Shown in pieces: positions 11,501 through 14,500 of a stretch of DNA of 64,000 bases (its first letter is position 1; the number at the start of each line of letters is the position of its first letter). The stretch comes from Escherichia coli. GTDB lineage: Bacteria; Pseudomonadota; Gammaproteobacteria; Enterobacterales; Enterobacteriaceae. Made by a program: the position numbers. The stretch lies in NCBI RefSeq assembly GCF_013315695.1, contig NZ_CP054353.1; one strand, 5' to 3'.

Positions 11501-14500
11501 ATTTTTTATGTTGGGGCTATTAAGGTTATGTTAATTGTAGCTTTGCTATGCTAGTAGTAGATTTTTGATAAATGTTTAATGGTCACAAATGAACGTGAGT
11601 AAATATGTCGCTATATTTTTCTTTGTTTTTATTCAGTTAATCAGTGTTGGTAAAGTTTTTGCTAACGCTGATGAGTGGATGACAACGTTTAGAGAAAATA
11701 TTGCACAAACCTGGCAACAGCCAGAACATATATGATTTATATATTCCTGCCATCACCTGGCATGCGCGTTTTGCCTATGACAAAGAAAAAACCGATCGCT
11801 ATAACGAGCGACCGTGGGGCGGCAGTTTTGGTCAGTCGCGTTGGGATGAAAAAGGAAACTGGCATGGCCTGTATGCCATGGCATTTAAGGACTCGTGGAA
11901 CAAATGGGAACCGATTGCCGGATACGGATGGGAAAGTACCTGGCGACCGCTGGCGGATGAAAATTTTCATTTAGGCCTGGGATTTACCGCTGGCGTAACG
12001 GCGCGCGATAACTGGAATTACATCCCTCTCCCGGTTCTACTGCCATTGGCCTCTGTGGGGTATGGCCCCGCGACGTTTCAGATGACCTACATTCCGGGTA
12101 CCTACAACAATGGCAATGTGTACTTTGCCTGGATGCGCTTTCAGTTTTGAGACAAATGAAGTTTTAGTAAATTCTTTAAAATCAACCACTAAAATAATTA
12201 ACATCAAAAATAACGCGACTTTTATCACTTTTTAGTAAAGTTGCACTGGACAAAGCGTACCACAATTGGTGTACTGGTAACCGACACAGCATTTGTGTCT
12301 ATTTTTCATGTAAAGGTAATTTTGATGTCTAAGATTAAAGGTAACGTTAAGTGGTTTAATGAGTCCAAAGGATTCGGTTTCATTACTCCGGAAGACGGCA
12401 GCAAAGACGTGTTCGTACACTTCTCTGCAATCCAGACTAATGGTTTTAAAACTCTTGCTGAAGGTCAGCGCGTAGAGTTCGAAATCACTAACGGTGCCAA
12501 AGGCCCTTCTGCTGCAAACGTAATCGCTCTGTAAGATACGTCAGCAAGAATTCAAAACCCGCTTAATCAGCGGGTTTTTTTTGGTCTTTAGTGTGCGGTT
12601 GAGGCGGAAAACAGCCAGAAAGCCAGTGCGGTCATGGCAAAAGACCCCAAAAGGTTGACGAAAACGTTCAGTAACGCCCAGCCAAAGCGGCCCTCTTGTA
12701 ACAAAAACACCACTTCTGCCGAAAATGTTGAGAAGGTTGTTAGACCGCCACAAAATCCGGTGGTGATTAATACTTTCCACACTGGATCAATGTTCGTCAT
12801 CCTGCTAAACCAGGCGAATCCCATTCCTATGATGAATGCCCCAATCAGGTTTGCAGCCAGCGTCCCCAACGGAATCGCTTGATGTAGCGGGTTAAATCGC
12901 ATACTTAACAGCCATCTCGCCACGCTTCCCGTACCACCGCCAATAAAAACTGCTAAAAGAAGTTGTAACACTGCAAAATCCTGCTATTTGATTTGTATGA
13001 GTGATAAGTGTAACGCCGAATAATCGCCGTTGGCGAATTTTACGACTCTGACAGGAGGTGGCAATGCTGGTTGCTGCAGGACAGTTTGCTGTGACATCTG
13101 TGTGGGAAAAGAACGCTGAGATTTGTGCCTCGTTGATGGCGCAGGCGGCGGAAAACGACGTTTCGCTGTTTGTCCTGCCGGAAGCATTGTTGGCGCGAGA
13201 TGATCATGATGCAGATCTATCGGTTAAATCAGCACAGCTGCTGGAAGGCGAATTCCTCGGACGTTTACGGCGAGAAAGTAAACGTAACATGATGACGACA
13301 ATTCTGACGATTCATGTTCCTTCAACGCCGGGGCGCGCATGGAATATGCTGGTGGCGCTACAGGCAGGAAACATCGTCGCCCGTTATGCCAAACTGCATC
13401 TCTATGATGCATTTGCCATTCAGGAATCACGCCATGTTGATGCTGGTAATGAAATAGCTCCATTACTGGAGGTGGAAGGGATGAAGGTCGGTCTGATGAC
13501 CTGTTATGACTTACGCTTTCCAGAGCTGGCGCTGGCACAGGCATTACAGGGAGCTGAAATCCTGGTACTTCCTGCCGCCTGGGTTCGCGGGCCGCTCAAA
13601 GAGCATCACTGGTCAACGTTGCTTGCCGCTCGTGCGCTGGATACCACCTGTTATATGGTGGCGGCGGGGGAGTGCGGGAACAAAAATATCGGGCAAAGCC
13701 GGATTATAGATCCCTTTGGCGTCACCATTGCGGCAGCGTCAGAAATGCCTTCACTCATTATGGCGGAAGTGACGCCCGAACGTGTGCGTCAGGTGCGCGC
13801 GCAACTGCCCGTCTTAAACAACCGTCGCTTTGCGCCGCCGCAATTATTATGATGTTTTTTTACTCGGCGCTTGATTCACCTTGTTACAGATTGCTATTGT
13901 GTGCGCGCGTCGAATGACCGTTAATATTCTCTGGTTTTTAAGGCGCGTTCTGTTGCCGGTTATATGTCAAGAAGGTATCTATGGGTGAGATTAGTATTAC
14001 CAAACTGCTGGTAGTTGCGGCGCTGGTCGTTCTGCTGTTTGGGACTAAGAAGTTACGTACGCTGGGCGGAGACCTTGGAGCGGCCATTAAAGGGTTCAAG
14101 AAGGCGATGAATGATGACGATGCTGCGGCGAAAAAAGGCGCAGACGTTGATCTTCAGGCTGAAAAGCTCTCTCATAAAGAGTGACGTGGCGAGCAGGACG
14201 CTCCCTCAATATCTTGTTCGATACAAAAAACCCGCTTCAAAAAGCGGGTTTTTTATCAGACAGATGTAAGTAATTATTACAGGATTACTTAACTTCCATC
14301 CCTTTCGCCTGCAAATCGGCGTGGTAAGACGAGCGGACAAACGGACCGCATGCAGCATGGGTAAAGCCCATCGCCAGCGCTTCGGCTTTCATTTCGTCGA
14401 ACTCATCCGGGCTAACGTAACGTTGAACCGGCAGGTGATGGCGGCTTGGCTGCAAATATTGCCCCAGCGTTAACATCGTCACACCATGACGGCGCAGGTC

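Follow-up and report, generated by a model that had tools for sequence, protein, structure and literature searches.

The ybeM locus of this Escherichia coli genome raises a simple question: does it encode a working enzyme, or the remains of one? A first, sequence-only reading had found an uninterrupted 262-codon frame for a nitrilase-superfamily amidase with a strong Shine-Dalgarno sequence, described the K-12 locus as a split pseudogene (ybeM/ybeH), and suggested that the window, by which we mean the whole 64,000-nt stretch analysed here, belongs to a non-K-12 lineage that retains the ancestral gene. Our analysis points, with a probability of roughly 0.93, to a functional, ancestral E. coli allele whose product would be a cytosolic Nit1-type carbon-nitrogen hydrolase, the deaminated glutathione (dGSH) amidase EC 3.5.1.128. 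The locus is laid out as follows.

12588..12971, minus strand: crcB (fluoride channel), the divergent upstream neighbour of ybeM, across a 92-nt intergenic region
13053..13060, plus strand: Shine-Dalgarno sequence AGGAGGTG, an 8-nt match read directly, ending 3 nt before the ATG
13064..13852, plus strand: ybeM coding sequence, 262 codons and TGA, defined by frame reading, PF00795, NF033621 and the identical RefSeq coding sequence WP_001330455.1
13981..14184, plus strand: tatE, downstream of ybeM on the same strand, 128 nt past the ybeM stop

Both an open reading frame listing and direct reading gave a frame of 789 nt that begins with ATG, ends with TGA and holds 262 sense codons with zero internal stops. 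The mechanical listing begins this frame two codons before the ATG, at GTG 13058, and RefSeq places the start at the ATG in the identical sequence of strain MS 21-1. AGGAGGTG can pair with the 3' tail of 16S rRNA; because of this complementarity and the 3-nt distance to the ATG, the description of the Shine-Dalgarno sequence as strong was correct, as was that of the uninterrupted frame. The Shine-Dalgarno region (13050-13063) has gained an AGG triplet in some E. coli, for example ECCNB12-2, where AGGAGGAGG replaces AGGAGG. A 47-codon out-of-frame reading frame also lies inside ybeM at 13314-13457 on the plus strand, with the N-terminus MFLQRRGAH. This peptide is that of a 29-bp ybeM fragment of UTI89 DNA whose over-expression causes filamentation, an artificial effect in the view of its authors (PMC6206680).

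The product of the frame was assigned to its family with profile searches. YbeM scored 142 bits against Pfam PF00795 (CN_hydrolase; cut-off 23.2, E = 2.8e-41), with residues 3-245 aligned on profile positions 2-255 of 256, a match that rules out a chance reading frame. Against the NCBIfam model NF033621, named 'deaminated glutathione amidase', the score was 450.8 bits with a cut-off of 355, and residues 3-261 covered model positions 2-260 of 260. Among the NCBIfam models for other carbon-nitrogen hydrolases all scores fell far below the cut-offs, so that NF033621 alone was passed. The structures that rank highest against YbeM are likewise of the Nit1 type, C. elegans NitFhit (1ems, 107 bits) and yeast Nit2 (4h5u, 97 bits). 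The omega-amidases score lower, at 82 bits for mouse Nit2 (2w1v) and 75 bits for yeast Nit3 (1f89), so that YbeM is not closer to the omega-amidase (Nit2) type than to the Nit1 type. The proposed nitrilase-superfamily amidase is thus borne out by both profiles and by its structural relatives.

The reading of the frame had also called for a check of the conserved Glu-Lys-Cys triad. Alignment to the structures located the following residues, all on the plus strand.

13181..13183, plus strand: GAA, catalytic Glu40, aligned with Glu54 of 1ems
13391..13393, plus strand: AAA, catalytic Lys110, aligned with Lys127 of 1ems
13424..13426, plus strand: GAA, second active-site Glu121, in an 'ES' motif aligned in 1ems and yeast Nit2
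13502..13504, plus strand: TGT, nucleophile Cys147, aligned with Cys169 of 1ems

Glu54, Lys127 and Cys169 of 1ems form the catalytic triad of NitFhit, and the triad is therefore present in YbeM. All four YbeM residues are invariant in an 11-sequence enterobacterial alignment made up of the window protein and ten orthologues from E. coli, E. fergusonii, Citrobacter, Salmonella, Leclercia, Kosakonia, Enterobacter and Cronobacter. Over the stretches of alignment shown, a single position separates the yeast Nit2 entries 4h5u and 4hgd: the one aligned with Cys147, where they have Cys or Ser, as we would expect of an active-site mutant.

Family membership bears on the substrate as well. YbeM could be an intact omega-amidase like Nit2, acting on alpha-ketoglutaramate or alpha-ketosuccinamate, or could hydrolyse some other small amide rather than dGSH: mouse Nit2 and yeast Nit3 are among its relatives, it matches the aguB (62.8 bits) and PRK10438 amidohydrolase (60.6 bits) models weakly, and a sequence alone cannot give a substrate. 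Those matches lie far under their cut-offs, however, and the NF033621 match together with the higher scores of the Nit1-type structures makes such a substrate very improbable. We therefore retain dGSH as the probable substrate of YbeM.

Comparison with known systems places the protein within this family. The window protein agrees with the RefSeq YbeM of MS 21-1 (WP_001330455.1) at every residue (100% identity) and is 99% identical to the main E. coli YbeM cluster (P0002). It shares length, locus and neighbours with the E. coli YbeM proteins of NF033621 (WP_001330455.1 / WP_000959109.1), with no difference of substance besides His124 and Ser230; the commonest E. coli form has Arg124 and Ala230, and both positions vary among ybeM orthologues. 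The eukaryotic Nit1 proteins (mammalian Nit1, yeast Nit2 and the Nit domain of C. elegans NitFhit; 1ems and 4h5u) share the fold family and the aligned Glu-Lys-Cys residues, although the sequence similarity is distant (E = 9.4e-30 to 1ems). Going by the family name and by Peracchi et al. 2017, their reported reaction is presumably the same as that of YbeM. Unlike C. elegans NitFhit, bacterial YbeM has no Fhit fusion, and it is shorter than yeast Nit2, lacking an insertion of ~20 residues after position 209 that splits the alignment in two. The Yersinia-type dGSH amidase (NF043013) shares the superfamily and the annotated reaction with YbeM, but YbeM is not a member of that equivalog (83.6 bits, cut-off 500).

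dGSH is glutathione with a carbonyl in place of its free amino group and arises as a side product of transaminases. E. coli reportedly has a dGSH amidase, whose role is said by Peracchi et al. 2017 to be the removal of this useless transaminase side product. The substrate, chemistry and physiological role proposed here for YbeM draw on that work and on the curated family name, and they go beyond the frame, the family, the active-site residues, the K-12 lesion with its distribution, the ancestral state and the purifying selection that comparison of the sequences provides. Following the general mechanism of the nitrilase superfamily, Cys147 would attack dGSH at its amide carbonyl; Glu40 would serve as general base, Lys110 would stabilise the tetrahedral intermediate, and Glu121 would help to position the substrate. 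Cys-Gly would then leave, and hydrolysis of the thioester would give 2-oxoglutarate. The net effect would be removal of a useless metabolite, that is, metabolite repair by YbeM. The eukaryotic part of the dGSH amidase story is confirmed in the literature (PMC5714238; PMC9913352).

The K-12 counterpart of this gene is broken. MG1655 (NC_000913.3) is annotated with the pseudogene ybeM, b4581, at 658031-658818 (788 nt), at the same locus and in the same orientation as the window gene. Global alignment of the two over 789 nt gave 14 substitutions and one 1-nt deletion, and the lesion could be placed on a single base.

13263, plus strand: G present in the window and deleted in K-12, at ORF position 200 in codon 67, from the pairwise alignment

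The deletion turns CTCGGACGTTTACGG into CTCGGACTTTACGG. Frame 0 of the K-12 gene consequently ends after 75 codons, with residues 68-262 in another frame, and this frameshift at codon 67 explains the old split into ybeM and ybeH, whose two pieces it matches; the description of a split K-12 pseudogene was accurate. K-12 ybeM carries two further amino-acid changes, V33A and V37A, neither of which occurs in 300709, a wild isolate from Mozambique in which ybeM is annotated as 'frameshifted' by a deletion identical to that of K-12. The two genes differ by two non-synonymous and zero synonymous changes, which would fit relaxed constraint after inactivation, in numbers too small to carry weight.

We then turned to the distribution of the two alleles. 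With a 1-kb query the ybeM locus was matched in 5,424 of the 5,426 complete E. coli genomes and is therefore a core locus; matches of 1,004 nt in this census result from the AGG triplet gain described above. The weakest match, UTME-9, was discarded, as each of the six features annotated in the 3-kb stretch examined is a pseudogene in that assembly, in most cases with a frameshift. The exact K-12 deletion allele was found in 859 of the 5,424 genomes with the locus, roughly 16%, with an 80-nt K-12 query that has the deletion at its midpoint, a length at which one gap takes the identity under the 99% band. The corresponding 81-nt query recovered the exact window allele in 3,533 complete genomes; the remaining genomes keep the full length but carry one or two substitutions, as in ATCC 25922. 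Among the matches listed, carriers of the deletion include the K-12 laboratory strains MG1655, C600, DH5alpha and J53 as well as isolates from human stool, chicken, dog, river water, cucumber and bovine mastitis. The contrast drawn between an intact window gene and a frameshifted K-12 gene therefore holds, but the lesion is not specific to K-12, as it extends to wild isolates. An intact allele is present in O157:H7, ATCC 25922 and BL21, the BL21 gene being 789 nt long. A different 1-nt deletion was seen in O157:H7 ATCC 43889, at ORF position 49 (window 13112), where GAAAAGAAC becomes GAAAAGAC and ybeM is annotated as 'frameshifted'. In other O157:H7 genomes the K-12 deletion site is undamaged; the ATCC 43889 deletion represents either a separate loss of the gene or an error in the assembly.

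Orthologues of 262 residues with 72-84% identity occur across the Enterobacteriaceae, and ybeM is 789 nt long in a crcB-ybeM-tatE-lipA arrangement in E. fergusonii, Salmonella enterica and Citrobacter amalonaticus. Since these intact orthologues are syntenic, the uninterrupted frame represents the ancestral state and the K-12 deletion a derived one, in agreement with the earlier suggestion that the window keeps the ancestral gene. K-12 and a related group of strains would thus have lost the enzyme through the single-base deletion at codon 67, a deletion that the lineage of the window would never have suffered. The reverse history, in which the frame of the window once carried the K-12-type frameshift and was then repaired, either through reversion or through recombination with an intact copy, draws on the fact that E. 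coli recombines and that a single-base lesion can revert. We consider it extremely improbable, given the syntenic intact orthologues outside the species, the intact alleles of O157:H7, ATCC 25922 and BL21, and a window/K-12 divergence of ~2% along the full 64 kb, in which no stretch at ybeM comes closer to K-12.

Selection on the ancestral gene was assessed with the Nei-Gojobori method. Comparison of the window gene with those of E. fergusonii, Salmonella and Citrobacter gave dN/dS values of 0.05-0.12, ratios that are approximate because dS is saturated against the other genera (1.5-2.0). The window and BL21 genes differ by ten synonymous and two non-synonymous substitutions, a dN/dS of 0.064. 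These low values indicate purifying selection on what would be a working gene. An intact ybeM might nonetheless be effectively silent or dispensable, a pseudogene in waiting. The 859 frameshifted genomes, from humans, animals, water and food, do without it, and MG1655 derivatives take cassettes at ybeM, a use of the site that follows from its well accepted pseudogene status, with replacement of the gene tolerated (PMC7242477). Against this, the dN/dS range across genera and the conservation of every catalytic residue argue for long-term purifying selection, and ybeM of CFT073 is measurably expressed and responsive to NO, at 0.30-fold in the NO condition (PMC5320621). A silent or dispensable gene thus appears improbable, and we favor a functional ybeM in the window.

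The surroundings of the gene were searched for regulatory signals. The gene order pagP-cspE-crcB-ybeM-tatE-lipA of the window is conserved, with crcB-ybeM-tatE-lipA found in MS 21-1, BL21, E. fergusonii, Salmonella and Citrobacter and the window collinear with K-12. Positions 11500-15500 were scanned against Rfam with a permissive threshold, which gave no structured-RNA match in the crcB-ybeM intergenic region, and hence none to a fluoride riboswitch. The only match, besides weak sub-threshold ones at the tatE/lipA terminator, was a cspA-type thermoregulator at 12134-12582 on the plus strand (136 bits, gathering score 78) that spans the cspE 5' region and gene, as expected of a cspA paralogue. 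Counts from a promoter and terminator scan were not above those of shuffled sequence, and we therefore make no promoter claim for ybeM. Within the gene, ATGATGCATTT at 13404-13414 on the plus strand departs by one mismatch from the NsrR half-site AANATGCATTT and occupies nucleotides 341-351 of ybeM, on the codons right after catalytic Lys110. The half-site motif is not above chance in the window (6 found, 7.9 expected). The position coincides with an NsrR ChIP-seq peak 345 nt into ybeM in CFT073 (PMC5320621). A candidate NsrR-bound site within the gene might, as a further possibility, link the ybeM locus to nitrosative stress.

The window also informs on lineage. It keeps the order of K-12 644969-715015, to which it is about 97-98% identical, and its first 16.5 kb is 100% identical to MSB1_4I and OZ547117.1 and 99.9% identical to MS 21-1. 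An IS1 of 768 nt lies at 16579-17346 between ybeF and lipB, with InsA (16634-16909) and InsB' (16828-17331) reading frames, flanked by a 9-nt target duplication of K-12 661535-661543 on both sides. The ybeQ-ybeR-djlB-ybeT-ybeU-djlC-hscC block (K-12 675501-683471, about 8 kb) is absent, leaving a ybeL-rihA gap of just 36 nt at 31315-31350. Between gltI and lnt, where K-12 has IS5D instead, the window holds an extra 2.2 kb (35874-38097) with a plus-strand reading frame at 36082-37959, whose 625-aa product combines a Rhomboid domain at the N-terminus (2.9e-28) with a beta-propeller at the C-terminus (weak WD40, YncE and lactonase matches). K-12 also lacks a counterpart of about 426 nt at 46211-46636, which separate the Gln/Met/Leu tRNA array from asnB. 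The inference of a non-K-12 lineage is upheld by the identity of about 98%, the IS1 and the missing ybeQ-hscC block; the intact ybeM hardly adds to it, as this is the majority state in E. coli, BL21 included.

An intact ybeM is the ordinary state of the species and a matter of routine RefSeq annotation, and the enzyme family, the K-12 pseudogene and its one-base deletion are all already known; beyond correct annotation, the intact gene is of little consequence. We regard it as doubtful, though conceivable, that the K-12-type frameshift (~16% of genomes) marks a natural clade without dGSH repair, while window-like lineages keep that repair. If true, the two ybeM alleles would be a natural knock-out and wild-type pair with which to test dGSH repair in fitness. 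K-12 is in any case a poor reference for ybeM, being a natural null for a conserved metabolite-repair enzyme for which most E. coli are wild type. Caution is warranted in carrying glutathione-metabolism or metabolomics results from K-12 to other strains, and in using ybeM for 'neutral' integration in strains other than K-12.
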